Shown: positions 42,665 to 47,062 of the stretch, one piece after another | How positions within the stretch are numbered: position 1 is the first letter of the stretch | How the letters are laid out: each line of letters begins with the position of its first letter | DNA from: Sedimentisphaerales bacterium | Lineage (GTDB): Bacteria > Planctomycetota > Phycisphaerae > Sedimentisphaerales > Anaerobacaceae | Direction: 5' to 3' | Length of the DNA: 49,793 nt | Assembly: GCA_016936275.1 (NCBI GenBank) | Contig: JAFGPJ010000114.1 | Span: forward strand, 1-49,793 | Position numbers and translations under genes: made by a program | Notes under the pieces: generated by a model | The model's database searches: none | The model's input: the letters and a program-made list of their open reading frames with translations, nothing else | What the model was told of the DNA's origin: nothing

Positions 42665-45600
42665 ATGCCAAATTTTGGTCGCTACAAGACCGTTCGTGAG
42701 CTTTACCGAATCGGCTTTATCATATTGTATAGTGGGCGGGCTGAAGACAGCCCAGAGGAGAAGTTCGCCGTTAAAGTTTTTCAGCCGTCTGCTCTCCTCT
42801 TGGAAAAAGAGCGAGCCAAGGCTGAATCTGATTTATTCCTCAGTAGTGTATCGACTCAGCAAAAGGTCTCCGCCAGCGGTGCGCAACACTGGGCACCCAT
42901 TTTCGATAAGGGCTTATCTCCTGACGGCGCATTCTATGTTACAAATAAGTATGACCACTCACTTCAGCAACTCATAGACGGTCGCGTTAAGCTTACGGCT
43001 CAGGCGCTTCATGCAATTATAGAGTCGGCTGCAAAAGGCCTGATTGAATTGAAGCAGGCGTGCTCACGACCACACGGGAACCTCAAGGCCGCCAACGTTC
43101 TCATTACCGGAGCCGCAGATTTCTCACAAACCAAAGTTGTATTGACCGACCCGCTGCCGGATGAACAAATCGATACAGAAGTGCACTGGGATACCGATTT
43201 GCGAGCCATAGCGGAGTTCATTTATCAGTTTGTAATGCACCGACCATCACCTGTGTCTATCGGCTGGCAGGTGCCTGAGACGCAAGAATGGGCAAGACTT
43301 GGAAAGCAGGCAGACGACTGGAGAAACCTGTGCAATCGCTTGCTGAACGCATACACCAAACCGGGCGCGATGACTATTGAGAATTTCCTTGAGGAGCTGT
43401 CTAAATTAAAAGTAACAAAGCCAATCCCAACACACCGTTATATTATCGCGGCAGGTCTGACGGTCGCTATGAGCGTCATCATTTTATGGTTCTTTTTACA
43501 CAAACCGCCCCCGCCTCCACAATTAGAAGACTGGAGGAAGTTATGTTCCGAGTATCTTGGCTGGGTGGACGACCTCCACAAGGCCCTGGGACTTCCCAAG
43601 GGCAATACACGGGCGAAACAGTGGCGGGAAGACCCGGACCTTTCGAAGATATTGGAGAAAATCAGAGATGCTTCCTATCCTGACAGAGTAGCTGTCGAAA
43701 AGAGCAAAACTGTTAATGATTTAAAGGAACCAAAAGCTGAAGAAGAACTGCTCGGAGTTGATGCCCGCAAAACGGAAAAGGCGGTGTTGGCTATCAAGGA
43801 TATTAAGAGCTTCTTTGACCCTAACACGGACAAAGCATGGCTCCCTTTGCGCCGGATAAACGAGGGCGCAAAAGATTTCTATGAACGCGGCTGGCAGCGA
43901 CCAGCCGCATACCTCCAGAATTTCGTTGACGCCGTACAGCCAGGACCAGGCAACAAAACCATTCCCGAAAGTGTGGACAAGCTGCTCGAACTTCACCGTC
44001 GAGGCATAATGGAAAAAATTCGGGGGTATATGGACGATATCGCCAAATATCAAAAAACAATCACGGGTTTGGGGGACCCAATTTTGGCCGAGTTCGACGA
44101 CGGTTTTGTTAACAAAGAAGCCGCATTGGGGCTTGGCGATGCTGGCGAAGAGCCCCTTAGTAAGCTAAGTGAGAATCTGCGGGAAATAAACAATTGGGCG
44201 GGCAAACTCGCCGGAAGCATTGGAGGCGACTGGCAGAAAGCGATCGACCGTGAGACGTTCGTCAAGGACCATGGTAATGACAATGTAGGAACTCTGACGA
44301 TGGAGACCTTCACAAAAAGGCTTGAAATCATTCAGGGATATCGTTATCTGCGGGTCGACCCTCGTGATGAGATAGACGGTCTCGTCCGCCAAATTGAGGA
44401 TTATATCAAGGAAGGACAGATTTCAAATCCTAAGGAGGCCGCCGCGTGCACCACGAAACTGGACGAACTGAGGCCGAATATTAACGAGGTCAGGTCAATA
44501 AGGGGCATAACGAAAAACGAGCAGGACATCAAGCAGGGAATCAACCGATATAAGCCCCAGCTTGACGAGCTCCGAGAAAGGGCTCTCCGGGCGAGAGAAC
44601 TGCCGAGAGACTATGTTAAGCGAATGGAGCAGGAGGCGCTTTCTCCTGCGAAATCCGATAAGGTTATTGAGAAATGGACTATGGTGAAGAAGGCGCTTCT
44701 ACAAAATTACCCCCTCTCTAAAATCGAGCAGAATCTGGAGTTGTACGCTGAGCTGCGACAAAAAATGTATGAGGCAAATAACAACCTTGTTGCATTGGAC
44801 GAAGAAATACAGACGCAATTGCCTCTACAGGTTGGCGCGGAAATGGGAGAAGAGGATTGGCAGCGACGGTTCGGACAAATCTATGAGCAGGAACGGGAAA
44901 ACAGGATAAACCGCATAGTCGAAAAAATTCCACTGACCGATGCCGTGCCGGATATTAACGAGGCCGCGTTCAAAAACCTTCGTCTTAAGCAGTACTCTGA
45001 ATTCGGACAGTGGCGGGATAATCTGGCCGGAATCGTTAGAGCGTTTAATGCAATTGCGGGTGGACTCGAACTTTATTATTCCCTCGATGACAACCTGCCT
45101 CAAATCCAGAAAAGCATTAGCTCATTATGGCAGACGTGGAAAGACAAGGATATCCTCAAAGACCGGAGAATCAGTGATGGACTCAACGAACTAATATCCA
45201 GGATTGAGAAGCTGGTGGAGGTCAGGCGGTCCGGCGACAGGATGGCTCTGGCAGCGACAGCGCTTGACCCTCATTCCCGACCAGAGGCGGTATATGCCGC
45301 CTGGGAGAGACTCGGTGCGTTTTCGGACCCACACTGGCCGAACCAGGCCGAAGACTGGGAAAACGATAAAAAAATCCAGGAAACACTAAAAGTACAATTC
45401 GACGCAATCAAAGGGCGAAACCAATCGCGTGGAGATGAGCTTCTAAAGATGCTCTCCAACGCCGGCATCGAGCGTGAAAAAGTGTTCCGCAAAGCGAACA
45501 CTGAGCGATACAGAGCTGTGATTACGACTCATAGCTCCCAGGACCAGGTGCTCCTTAAATTTGACAAATTTCAGCCATACGGACCTGATTCGGGTTTGAG

Positions 45601-47062
45601 TGAAATCAAGGAATTCGAAGCCCTTGCGACGAAACTTGCCGAATTTGTGACCAGCGACGATTGGCAAAGTAAAAAGTTTCGCACGGATCTTTTGCCTTAC
45701 AGGCCGCAGGCCGTTCTCAGCACAAAAACGTTTGAGGAATGGCTCGAAGAAATCAAGGAGTATCACATAATTGAGACGGACCCTCGCTCCGACAAGCGTT
45801 ATACATGGAACGCCACAATGAGTTACATTCAAAAGGAGCTGGCCGGTGCGCCTGATGCAGATGATTCTGACAAGCTCCGGGCCGCCTTCGAGGCGGTCAA
45901 ACCAAATGTCGAGAACATGCTTGACTTGCCCGCAATTGAAAAGCACAAAGCCGAAATTTTTAAATGTGAGGACTATTGGAAACAGCTCATGGACATACAG
46001 AACAAGCTCAAGCCCGTGTACTGTAAGTATCTCAACCTGACGGACGGGCAGGTAATTCTTTCGCCGGAGGTGAGTTTGCGCGCATTTGAACCGGTGACCA
46101 AAAATGAAAATGACTCGTTCGTGCCGGCACATGTTCCCAAGTGGAACGACATAAGAACGGATTTTTTCTATACTACCAACGCCAGTGACGCCAAGAATAT
46201 GGGTTGGCCTAAATATATCAGGTCATCTAAAGACTCGAGCGTCATATTGGCATTCGTCCCGGCTGGCCGAGACAATCCTGAGCCGTTCTATATGGCCGCA
46301 CACGAAATAACTAATGCTCAATATTGTTTGTTTCTAAAAGATATTGGTGCGAAGGATACTGGGGAGCTTGAGGGTGGGACGCTGTTTGTTGATCAAGGCA
46401 GGAAGCAGCTCGTTTCCTGGGCCAGCTTTGATTATCCTCGCAACGCCATAAAATACGACAAGCCAAACGGGGACTTTGTCGTAAGCAGGCAAAGCGAGAA
46501 CGCTCCTGTGGTCTGGGTCACTTTTAGTGGAGCAACTTCTTATGCTGATTGGCTGGGCGGACAATTGCCCACATCCTCACAGTATAGCTATGCCTGCCGA
46601 GCAGGTGCTGATACTAAATATCCGTGGGGGAATGACCTGACCCAGATTCAGCTCTATGCTCATGTCAGAGCCGCCTCCTGGCAGCGTGCAGCCAACGAGT
46701 ATAACACCACAATCAACGCTCTTGTTGACATGGCGCCTTGTCCGATAGGAGCAGTGAAGAAGGAGTCGCTTGAGAAAGATAACACTCTTGATACAACAAA
46801 GATTGTTTGTAAAGAAGATGATTACAACTATGCTTGGCCGCTTGCCACAACTACTAAACCTAATGTCTGGGGGCTTTATGATATGATTGGCAATGTATGG
46901 GAATGGTGCAGTAGTGATGAAAAAAATACGCAGACTGTAATTTGCGGCGGTTCCTGTTTGGCCCCACTGGAATATGTTACCCCAGACTCTAAATATGATT
47001 TTAAGGGACAAGATTCTGATGTAGGATTTCGGGTAATTGTGCCGGCCAAATTAAGCCCCTAA
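42665..47062 (+). CDS. Membrane-spanning PpkA-like pseudokinase: N-terminal degenerate Ser/Thr-kinase-like domain, one TM helix, ~900-aa helical periplasmic region, C-terminal FGE-sulfatase (SUMF1/DUF323)-type domain
   Basis: The kinase-like fold has KFAVKVF (VAIK Lys present). RPHGNLKAANVLI stands in place of HRDLKPxNIL, so the catalytic Asp is replaced by Asn. VVLTDPL stands in place of DFG, and the Gly-loop is degenerate (YRIGFIILYSG). The TM helix is YIIAAGLTVAMSVIILWFFL, followed by KPPPPPQ. The C-terminus has FYMAAHEITNAQYCLFL, PVVWVTFSGATSYADWLGGQLPTSSQYSYACRAG, KPNVWGLYDMIGNVWEWC and DVGFRVIV, which are classic FGE-sulfatase-domain motifs. Confidence 0.8.
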   Translation: MPNFGRYKTVRELYRIGFIILYSGRAEDSPEEKFAVKVFQPSALLLEKERAKAESDLFLSSVSTQQKVSASGAQHWAPIFDKGLSPDGAFYVTNKYDHSLQQLIDGRVKLTAQALHAIIESAAKGLIELKQACSRPHGNLKAANVLITGAADFSQTKVVLTDPLPDEQIDTEVHWDTDLRAIAEFIYQFVMHRPSPVSIGWQVPETQEWARLGKQADDWRNLCNRLLNAYTKPGAMTIENFLEELSKLKVTKPIPTHRYIIAAGLTVAMSVIILWFFLHKPPPPPQLEDWRKLCSEYLGWVDDLHKALGLPKGNTRAKQWREDPDLSKILEKIRDASYPDRVAVEKSKTVNDLKEPKAEEELLGVDARKTEKAVLAIKDIKSFFDPNTDKAWLPLRRINEGAKDFYERGWQRPAAYLQNFVDAVQPGPGNKTIPESVDKLLELHRRGIMEKIRGYMDDIAKYQKTITGLGDPILAEFDDGFVNKEAALGLGDAGEEPLSKLSENLREINNWAGKLAGSIGGDWQKAIDRETFVKDHGNDNVGTLTMETFTKRLEIIQGYRYLRVDPRDEIDGLVRQIEDYIKEGQISNPKEAAACTTKLDELRPNINEVRSIRGITKNEQDIKQGINRYKPQLDELRERALRARELPRDYVKRMEQEALSPAKSDKVIEKWTMVKKALLQNYPLSKIEQNLELYAELRQKMYEANNNLVALDEEIQTQLPLQVGAEMGEEDWQRRFGQIYEQERENRINRIVEKIPLTDAVPDINEAAFKNLRLKQYSEFGQWRDNLAGIVRAFNAIAGGLELYYSLDDNLPQIQKSISSLWQTWKDKDILKDRRISDGLNELISRIEKLVEVRRSGDRMALAATALDPHSRPEAVYAAWERLGAFSDPHWPNQAEDWENDKKIQETLKVQFDAIKGRNQSRGDELLKMLSNAGIEREKVFRKANTERYRAVITTHSSQDQVLLKFDKFQPYGPDSGLSEIKEFEALATKLAEFVTSDDWQSKKFRTDLLPYRPQAVLSTKTFEEWLEEIKEYHIIETDPRSDKRYTWNATMSYIQKELAGAPDADDSDKLRAAFEAVKPNVENMLDLPAIEKHKAEIFKCEDYWKQLMDIQNKLKPVYCKYLNLTDGQVILSPEVSLRAFEPVTKNENDSFVPAHVPKWNDIRTDFFYTTNASDAKNMGWPKYIRSSKDSSVILAFVPAGRDNPEPFYMAAHEITNAQYCLFLKDIGAKDTGELEGGTLFVDQGRKQLVSWASFDYPRNAIKYDKPNGDFVVSRQSENAPVVWVTFSGATSYADWLGGQLPTSSQYSYACRAGADTKYPWGNDLTQIQLYAHVRAASWQRAANEYNTTINALVDMAPCPIGAVKKESLEKDNTLDTTKIVCKEDDYNYAWPLATTTKPNVWGLYDMIGNVWEWCSSDEKNTQTVICGGSCLAPLEYVTPDSKYDFKGQDSDVGFRVIVPAKLSP

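Follow-up and report, generated by a model that had tools for sequence, protein, structure and literature searches.

How is a type VI secretion system (T6SS) controlled when the membrane kinase encoded in its gene cluster seems to have lost phosphotransfer? This question is raised by a gene at positions 42665..47062 (+) of contig JAFGPJ010000114.1 from a Sedimentisphaerales bacterium (Planctomycetota, Phycisphaerae; assembly GCA_016936275.1), the 49,793 nucleotides of which are hereafter called the window. Firing of H1-type T6SSs is controlled by the kinase PpkA, the phosphatase PppA, Fha (TagH) and TagF, and to our knowledge nearly all understanding of how T6SSs are controlled post-translationally comes from the PpkA-PppA-Fha pathway in a few Proteobacteria. 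An earlier reading of the window from its letters alone (the original prediction) took the gene for a dead kinase in the position of PpkA, serving as a phosphorylation-independent scaffold. The open reading frame (ORF) listing returns exactly the predicted coordinates and strand, with an ATG start and a product of 1465 residues, a bitopic membrane pseudokinase with a C-terminal domain resembling formylglycine-generating enzyme (FGE). On the evidence set out below we consider it probable, though well short of certain, that this gene encodes a bitopic inner-membrane, T6SS-dedicated, phosphotransfer-dead transmembrane adaptor or accessory subunit of a Planctomycetota/Verrucomicrobiota lineage.

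The cytoplasmic pseudokinase domain comprises residues 1-256 (42665..43432, +), as delimited by profile searches, AlphaFold2 (AF2) modelling with Foldseek and conservation tables. It goes unseen by Pfam and NCBIfam scans, even when residues 1-300 are submitted alone at E<=0.1, and the family consensus reaches 15-16 bits against PF00069 and PF07714, for which the gathering cut-offs are 31.7 and 23.1. A PDB search with the single sequence gave one weak kinase match (E 1.3). A 29-sequence profile of the domain matched protein kinases only, the best being StkP of S. pneumoniae (E 4.5e-6), in an alignment that places K37 on the VAIK Lys and H137-G-N139-L-K-x-x-N144 on HRDLKxxN; hhalign against a T6SS-linked proteobacterial Ser/Thr kinase gave 95% probability. 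Moreover, the AF2 model (predicted local distance difference test, pLDDT, 90.2; predicted template modelling score, pTM, 0.89) retrieved at least 1969 PDB kinase matches at E<=1e-3 with TM-scores of 0.6-0.72. The top match was PknI of M. tuberculosis (E 3e-10), and the kinase-homology domain of Rv3910/MviN was also recovered (E 6e-9, TM-score ~0.64). Thus the N-terminal protein-kinase fold that had been claimed is borne out by family profile, hhalign and structure, and the cytoplasmic domain is a minimal Hanks-type kinase fold. Among the more than 120 full-length homologs found, these first ~256 residues are the best-conserved part of the protein, with 43-91% identity compared with 26-47% over the full length.

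Which elements of catalysis does the domain retain? Its key residues are K37 (the VAIK Lys), H137-G138-N139 (HRD, in which Asn takes the place of Asp), K141, N144, D162-P163-L164 (the DFG equivalent) and D178 (the Asp of helix alphaF). The predicted change of the HRD Asp to Asn is found in the window and in 111 of 112 close homologs, across which K37 is invariant, and the glycine-rich loop is degenerate as described, G17 being its sole survivor. The reading of DFG as TDP was off by one: strand beta8 spans residues 157-160 in the AF2 model and ends at L160, so that the true motif is D162-P163-L164 and its metal-binding Asp is retained. Since the contig pattern search had used PHGNLK, the 80 loci that it returned favour Asn and were set aside for position 139; conservation there was judged on 151 unbiased family representatives drawn from an exhaustive hidden Markov model (HMM) search. 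Position 139 is Asn in 124 of these, Asp in seven, Ala in seven, Ser in four, Glu in three and Arg in two, and Lys, Gly, Cys and Met also occur. The flanking residues are conserved at 95-99% (H137 in 148 representatives, G138 in 148, N144 in 146, K37 in 144, D162 in 145, P163 in 149 and D178 in 150). Helix alphaC carries E54 in the window, and across the 151 representatives acidic residues exceed 60% in no alphaC column; in the same set the nucleotide loop is left with one glycine. Between D162 and D178 of helix alphaF lie 15 residues in 110/151 representatives, a distance so short that an activation loop, a P+1 loop or an APE motif is not possible.

A Pkinase HMM gave no match above its cut-off. 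When the catalytic residues are scored individually, the VAIK Lys (K37), the catalytic-loop Asn (N144) and the DFG Asp (D162) are kept, and the HRD Asp (position 139), the conserved alphaC Glu, a full glycine loop and the activation segment with its APE motif are not. This pattern shows relaxed constraint on the catalytic base together with loss of the elements for substrate binding, with strong constraint on the positions expected to ligate ATP and Mg. The protein is therefore very probably phosphotransfer-dead. With the ATP/Mg ligands K37, N144 and D162 retained, the pseudokinase may still bind nucleotide and might hence behave as a switch.

Beyond the kinase fold lies a single transmembrane helix at about residues 259-278 (43439..43498, +), with basic residues on its N-terminal side. 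It is the sole hydropathy peak above 1.6 in the protein, in agreement with the single helix foreseen, and a helix at about position 250-260 is near-universal in the family. The long helical ectodomain that had been anticipated is seen in the AF2 model as a periplasmic all-helical region of no known fold at about residues 287-1114 (43523..46006, +), with ~830 helical residues in ~40 helices. The model of residues 285-1465, built from a 35-sequence alignment, has a mean pLDDT of 82.7 and a pTM of 0.42 and consists of helices followed by an alpha/beta domain; Foldseek against the PDB returned nothing significant for the helical array (best E 0.36). The alpha/beta domain has an FGE fold (residues 1123-1465; 46031..47059, +). 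Its identification as an FGE-sulfatase domain is upheld by Pfam PF03781 (residues 1205-1457, E 1.1e-28), by human SUMF1 (E 4.6e-16) and by a Foldseek match to FGE (E 1e-6). In 117/117 alignable family members A/S/T and I/V/A stand, respectively, at the positions of C336 and C341, the copper-binding catalytic cysteines of human FGE. With both cysteines lost, the domain would therefore be a binding or structural module, and it is predicted to be unable to make formylglycine. Moreover, of 96 near-full-length unbiased representatives, 77 have the helical region and 52 a recognisable FGE domain, the remainder carrying a degenerate FGE domain, Sel1/TPR repeats or nothing recognisable at the periplasmic end. 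The domain had been called a sensor; the domain itself stands, but the role is conjecture and only about half of the relatives keep the domain. A variable periplasmic end joined to a constant pseudokinase is typical of an input/output design. Separately, one verrucomicrobial locus (L053, 6542-15367, +) encodes a 2941-residue protein in which each of two kinase-like domains has Asn for the HRD Asp (HRNLKPSN with an intact DFG, and PHGNLKPSN); between these domains lie a zinc ribbon and TPR-like repeats; a transmembrane helix follows, and then long immunoglobulin-like repeats in place of the FGE domain.

Is the protein dedicated to the T6SS? The exhaustive HMM search returned 1495 representative clusters (at 50% identity) at E<=1e-3 and 647 at E<=1e-30. 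The family thus comprises at least 647 clusters, in Planctomycetota and Verrucomicrobiota, and its members are annotated everywhere merely as 'SUMF1/FGE'. Synteny was assessed by tblastn of the window proteins against 84 loci from these two phyla. Core T6SS genes were present in 40/50 loci longer than 15 kilobases. Among 65 loci with enough flanking sequence, the homolog was preceded by a 654-residue protein in 55 and by a lipoprotein less than 400 base pairs upstream in 52. The order 654-residue protein, lipoprotein, pseudokinase, a 312-residue protein (unk312), TssK, TssL, TssM and, in some, a 323-residue protein (unk323) was found in 21-22 of the 42 loci with enough downstream sequence, in both phyla. 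By these counts the gene belongs, through synteny, to the block that encodes the membrane complex in this T6SS lineage, and its dedication to the T6SS is supported. In the window this block has been split. Some genomes have two paralogous copies of the module, since the loci L019 and L030 share one metagenome-assembled genome and L056 and L062 another.

If the protein is dead, are the partners of a phosphorylation pathway nevertheless encoded nearby? Pfam found no FHA, PP2C or kinase domain among window ORFs of at least 150 residues. A phmmer search was then seeded with a bona fide T6SS PP2C, a Ser/Thr kinase, three FHA-bearing TagH proteins, TagF and TssJ, and run against the 12,889 six-frame ORFs (>=50 residues) of the window and 84 related loci. 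It returned no PP2C match among these ORFs and no FHA-bearing TagH in the window or the 84 loci. The lone FHA match, at L059, was rejected as a TagH, being a generic FHA-coiled-coil-transmembrane protein, and the lone 'canonical' kinase match, at L053, is an extra domain within the same protein family and itself carries HRN. The claim that the cluster has no FHA or PP2C partner thus holds insofar as both went undetected, but a TagH-like gene without FHA is present.

That gene, unk312 (15691..16629, -; 312 residues), lies directly upstream of tssK. Twelve of its 22 orthologs match Pfam PF20232 (T6SS_FHA_C) below the cut-off, and the family consensus scores 19.6 bits (E 8.6e-4) against a cut-off of 23.7. 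Moreover, hhalign against a 31-sequence alignment of bona fide TagH C-terminal domains gave 83.8% probability (E 7.9e-6, 166 columns). No FHA domain was found in unk312 by Pfam, NCBIfam or phmmer; its family of ~140 members is uniformly about 310 residues long, all without FHA by Pfam, and a profile search gave close FHA-less relatives only. Caballeronia and Azospirillum clusters run tagH-tssK-tssL-tssM-tagF, an order in which unk312 holds the position of tagH. Altogether there is moderate support for unk312 as a TagH-like protein without its phospho-threonine reader, and the presence of such a gene without FHA strengthens a phosphorylation-independent reading. FHA-less proteins annotated as 'TagH' were also noted in Proteobacteria, namely in Caballeronia (L085, 18798-19991) and Paraburkholderia (P0250; 272 residues, PF20232 only).

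TagF had likewise been placed in the cluster. The candidate is unk323 (8231..9202, -; 323 residues), downstream of tssM, and its position fits, being that of tagF in Caballeronia, Azospirillum and Skermanella. The sequence signal is weak, however: four of five orthologs match TagF_N at E 0.07-1 (best 0.074), and hhalign against TagF, with single-sequence and 3-sequence templates, was non-significant (E 0.09). Single-sequence templates yielded nothing in hhalign for TagH, TagF or TssJ, and TagH was supported only with the 31-sequence template. TagJ (ImpE), the other accessory gene expected, is clearly present (20109..20936, -; PF07024, E 1.1e-45).

The gene is the third and last of a tight three-gene operon. 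The first member (40092..42056, +) encodes the 654-residue orphan protein, which lacks a signal peptide, and after a gap of 51 base pairs it is followed by the gene for a 175-residue lipoprotein with the lipobox LLAGGC (42108..42635, +), which lies 29 base pairs upstream of the pseudokinase gene. A convergent gene starts 61 base pairs downstream of the latter, and GC content is uniform at about 50% throughout the window. The 654-residue protein has 43 invariant columns across 20 diverse orthologs and no match in Pfam, NCBIfam or the PDB, profile searches included. A kinase-like C-lobe, suspected from its PCDLYSLAV motif, was rejected, as hhalign gave less than 1% against the pseudokinase, PP2C and TagH. 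In the lipoprotein G25 and C26 are invariant, and there was no Pfam or NCBIfam match and no hhalign match to TssJ.

The window holds a type-i T6SS cluster with TssA, TssB, TssC, Hcp, TagJ/ImpE, TssE, TssF, TssG, TssK, TssL, TssM, ClpV and VgrG, together with the 312-residue ORF before TssK, the 323-residue ORF after TssM, a DUF4123 adaptor and a PAAR gene. The membrane-complex and baseplate genes form a tssK-tssL-tssM block (9225..15668, -) consisting of tssK (14283-15668, -; Pfam VasE, 3e-65), tssL (13566-14279, -; DotU, 1e-18) and tssM (9225-13544, -; 1439 residues; IcmF-related_N, 7e-56). TssM matches the IcmF-related_N model only among Pfam models, and no Pfam or NCBIfam model for TssJ matched anywhere in the cluster, a pattern that suggests a divergent periplasmic membrane complex in this T6SS lineage. 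The co-encoded lipoprotein is a possible functional stand-in for the undetected TssJ.

Several other features of the cluster were observed. The PAAR gene (37870-38166, +; about 98 residues) falls below the 150-residue ORF filter, is 76% identical to the PAAR of locus L002 and sits between the ORFs of the vgrG arm and a 521-residue ORF (38187-39752, -). In the latter, TssB (VipA, residues 27-132) seems to be fused in a single chain to the N-terminal domain of TssC (VipB, residues 214-504), and the VipB_2 C-terminal domain is missing. The cluster thus has another sheath-like gene in addition to the canonical TssB/TssC at 21636-23670, and this fusion gene is kept in at least seven related loci (L017, L020-L023, L025 and L033). 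Flanked by tssA and the gene for a 548-residue methyltransferase, a 358-residue protein with an eCIS_core domain (PF13699, E 8e-28) is encoded at 25460-26536 (+), inside the T6SS cluster. Finally, the convergent gene (47123-49774, -) encodes an 883-residue Gly/Thr-rich repeat protein with a weak haemagglutinin-repeat match, and related ORFs occur in 27 loci. Its counterparts in L002 are a 1862-residue protein with a two-partner secretion (TPS) domain and a ShlB-type transporter, which together make a two-partner secretion system.

What, then, does the protein do? The proposed phosphorylation-independent scaffold is supported in that the protein appears dead and T6SS-dedicated, given position 139, alphaC, the activation segment and the lack of any PP2C in the 84 loci. 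Its supposed derivation from the threonine-phosphorylation pathway fared worse. Scored with the family HMM, two PpkA-type kinases linked to T6SSs reach 12.4 and 3.7 bits and StkP 29.2, and descent from PpkA is not supported by these comparisons. We infer that the protein would phosphorylate nothing and would work as an adaptor or switch across the membrane. On the periplasmic side it would bind a component of the envelope or a cue, probably jointly with the lipoprotein encoded beside it. The pseudokinase domain, for which nucleotide binding or dimerisation may serve as the gate, would recruit or release cytoplasmic assembly factors, for which the orphan 654-residue partner, the TagH-like protein without FHA and the TssK/L/M complex are candidates. 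The outcome would be licensing of T6SS assembly, the niche of PpkA/Fha/PppA being filled without phospho-threonine chemistry.

Several points weigh against this adaptor. All of the evidence is computational, and it is synteny alone that suggests contacts with the 654-residue protein, the TagH-like protein and TssL/M. Within the window ~26 kilobases separate tssKLM from the gene, which closes the vgrG arm. Conservation of K37, N144 and D162, with Asp139 in 7/151 representatives, leaves room for residual or atypical catalysis. Our searches covered the window and 84 loci, and FHA, PP2C or kinase genes elsewhere in the genome could act in trans. The TagH-like assignment is moderate (84% hhalign probability, with a Pfam score below the gathering cut-off), and FHA-less TagH proteins also occur in Proteobacteria that have kinases.

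A fuller version of the adaptor reading is tentative, and we regard it as possible rather than probable. The 654-residue protein, the lipoprotein and the pseudokinase would constitute a lineage-specific trans-envelope control module, in which a nucleotide-gated switch relays a periplasmic cue from the variable distal domain, via the ~830-residue helical stalk, to the FHA-less TagH and so triggers assembly. Phospho-threonine signalling would then have been fully replaced by pseudoenzyme allostery, and the module might also substitute for TssJ.

A rather unlikely alternative is that the protein is a static structural part. The stalk, the FGE-like head and the lipoprotein would then span the envelope of the Planctomycetota-Verrucomicrobiota-Chlamydiota (PVC) bacteria as an anchor or extension of the T6SS membrane complex, in place of the undetected TssJ and a divergent periplasmic domain of TssM, with the pseudokinase as a docking plate. 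The lack of a TssJ match in Pfam or NCBIfam and the restriction of TssM to IcmF-related_N fit such a role, as do the lipoprotein gene found alongside in 52/65 loci and a helical region long enough, by AF2, to serve as a spacer. Moreover, PorK/GldK, a structural ring lipoprotein of the type IX secretion system with an FGE fold, is among the sequence matches, and the pseudokinase EssB/YukC offers a precedent. A fixed contact would however be expected to stay conserved, whereas about half of the relatives show a C-terminal head that varies or has been lost; the conserved ATP-ligand residues point to a ligand-dependent state, and a pTM of 0.42 gives no reliable overall shape.

We think it improbable that the protein is an active but atypical enzyme, either a kinase with an alternative base or a nucleotide-dependent transferase (performing AMPylation or glutamylation, as SelO or SidJ do) that modifies a T6SS component. 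Near-invariance of K37, N144 and D162 would be in keeping with such an enzyme, as would the canonical Asp in seven of 151 members. HER3 and some other eukaryotic pseudokinases can bind ATP and show weak activity with Asn in place of the catalytic Asp, and SidJ is itself a kinase fold with other chemistry. Yet the base position tolerates Ala, Ser, Arg, Gly, Cys and Met, there is neither an activation/P+1 segment for a peptide substrate nor a conserved alphaC Glu, the glycine loop is degenerate, and no linked phosphatase or phospho-reader was found in the 84 loci. Lastly, an effector-immunity module, with the FGE-like domain as a Tsi3-type immunity protein, was rejected as very improbable: cysteine-less FGE-like proteins are a known T6SS immunity family (10.1101/2021.05.21.445229) and in the window the gene follows VgrG, DUF4123, three ORFs without known identity and PAAR at the end of that arm, but the best-conserved part is the cytoplasmic pseudokinase, FGE is optional and absent in about half of the relatives, synteny with the structural genes tssKLM extends across two phyla where immunity genes are normally variable cargo, and a 1465-residue bitopic architecture is unlike Tsi3.

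On the best-supported reading, the adaptor or accessory subunit would be functionally closest to PpkA (TagE) and would mechanistically resemble the EssB/YukC scaffold. It shares with PpkA a place in a T6SS cluster and a topology in which one transmembrane helix joins an N-terminal cytoplasmic Hanks-type fold to a C-terminal part in the periplasm; tssKLM has a TagH-like gene on one side and a possibly TagF-like gene on the other, an arrangement also seen in clusters of Caballeronia, Azospirillum and Skermanella. Unlike PpkA, it lacks the catalytic Asp, the activation segment, the glycine loop and the alphaC Glu, and has no linked PppA or FHA domain. The periplasmic part of PpkA in P. aeruginosa is a von Willebrand A-type domain, whereas here it is a helical array with an FGE fold, and the family HMM scores PpkA-type kinases below generic Hanks kinases.

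The kinase-homology domain of MviN (Rv3910) and PknI, among the closest structural matches, are membrane-linked kinase-like proteins with reduced or no activity. Gee et al. are said to have found in 2012 that phosphorylation by PknB lets the MviN pseudokinase recruit an FHA protein; in contrast, no kinase or FHA protein is linked to the gene studied here. In the type VIIb secretion system (T7SSb) the membrane pseudokinase EssB/YukC works as a scaffold, and other pseudokinases in membranes are predicted to act likewise (PMC12599244). The likeness lies at the level of the fold, EssB/YukC also being bitopic with a degraded cytoplasmic kinase fold, a degenerate glycine loop and an attenuated activation loop, and serving as a non-catalytic secretion scaffold (PMC12599244). 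It belongs, however, to another secretion system and phylum and has lost all three catalytic motifs, whereas the present family keeps the VAIK Lys and the DFG Asp, and Pfam scans gave no match of the family to YukC.

An atlas of bacterial Ser/Thr kinases describes the pseudokinase families CP1, DYD, ActPs1-3, DLHK and GLW as conserved, Hanks-derived and in many cases membrane-associated (10.1101/2025.01.12.632604). All seven families substitute the VAIK Lys, whereas the present family keeps the Lys and has lost only the HRD Asp. Homologs of PF00069 were the basis of the atlas, and the present family fails that model. The FGE fold resembles that of Tsi3 immunity proteins and PorK/GldK in lacking the copper-binding cysteine pair and in serving, there as putatively here, as a binding or structural module in secretion contexts. 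It differs from them as the distal domain of a 1465-residue transmembrane pseudokinase, dispensable in about half of the family.

Neither T6SSs nor Planctomycetes appear in the atlas (10.1101/2025.01.12.632604) or in the pseudokinase review (PMC12599244). A 2026 review of T6SS accessory factors lists TagE, TagG, TagH and TagF and contains no pseudokinase, FGE domain or PVC system, and full-text literature searches on T6SS with Planctomycetes or Phycisphaerae and pseudokinase gave nothing relevant.

Taken together, these data suggest that the T6SS of this lineage is controlled or assembled without phosphorylation. A large family annotated as 'SUMF1/FGE' would consist of membrane pseudokinases dedicated to the T6SS, whose TagH-like partner has lost the phospho-reader domain. 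If this is true, the family is a T6SS counterpart of the T7SSb pseudokinase EssB/YukC, and it adds a class of bacterial pseudokinases that keeps the Lys and the DFG Asp while dropping the catalytic base, and that is invisible to PF00069-based censuses. Moreover, the family offers concrete genes for study in the few cultivable Planctomycetes and Verrucomicrobia.

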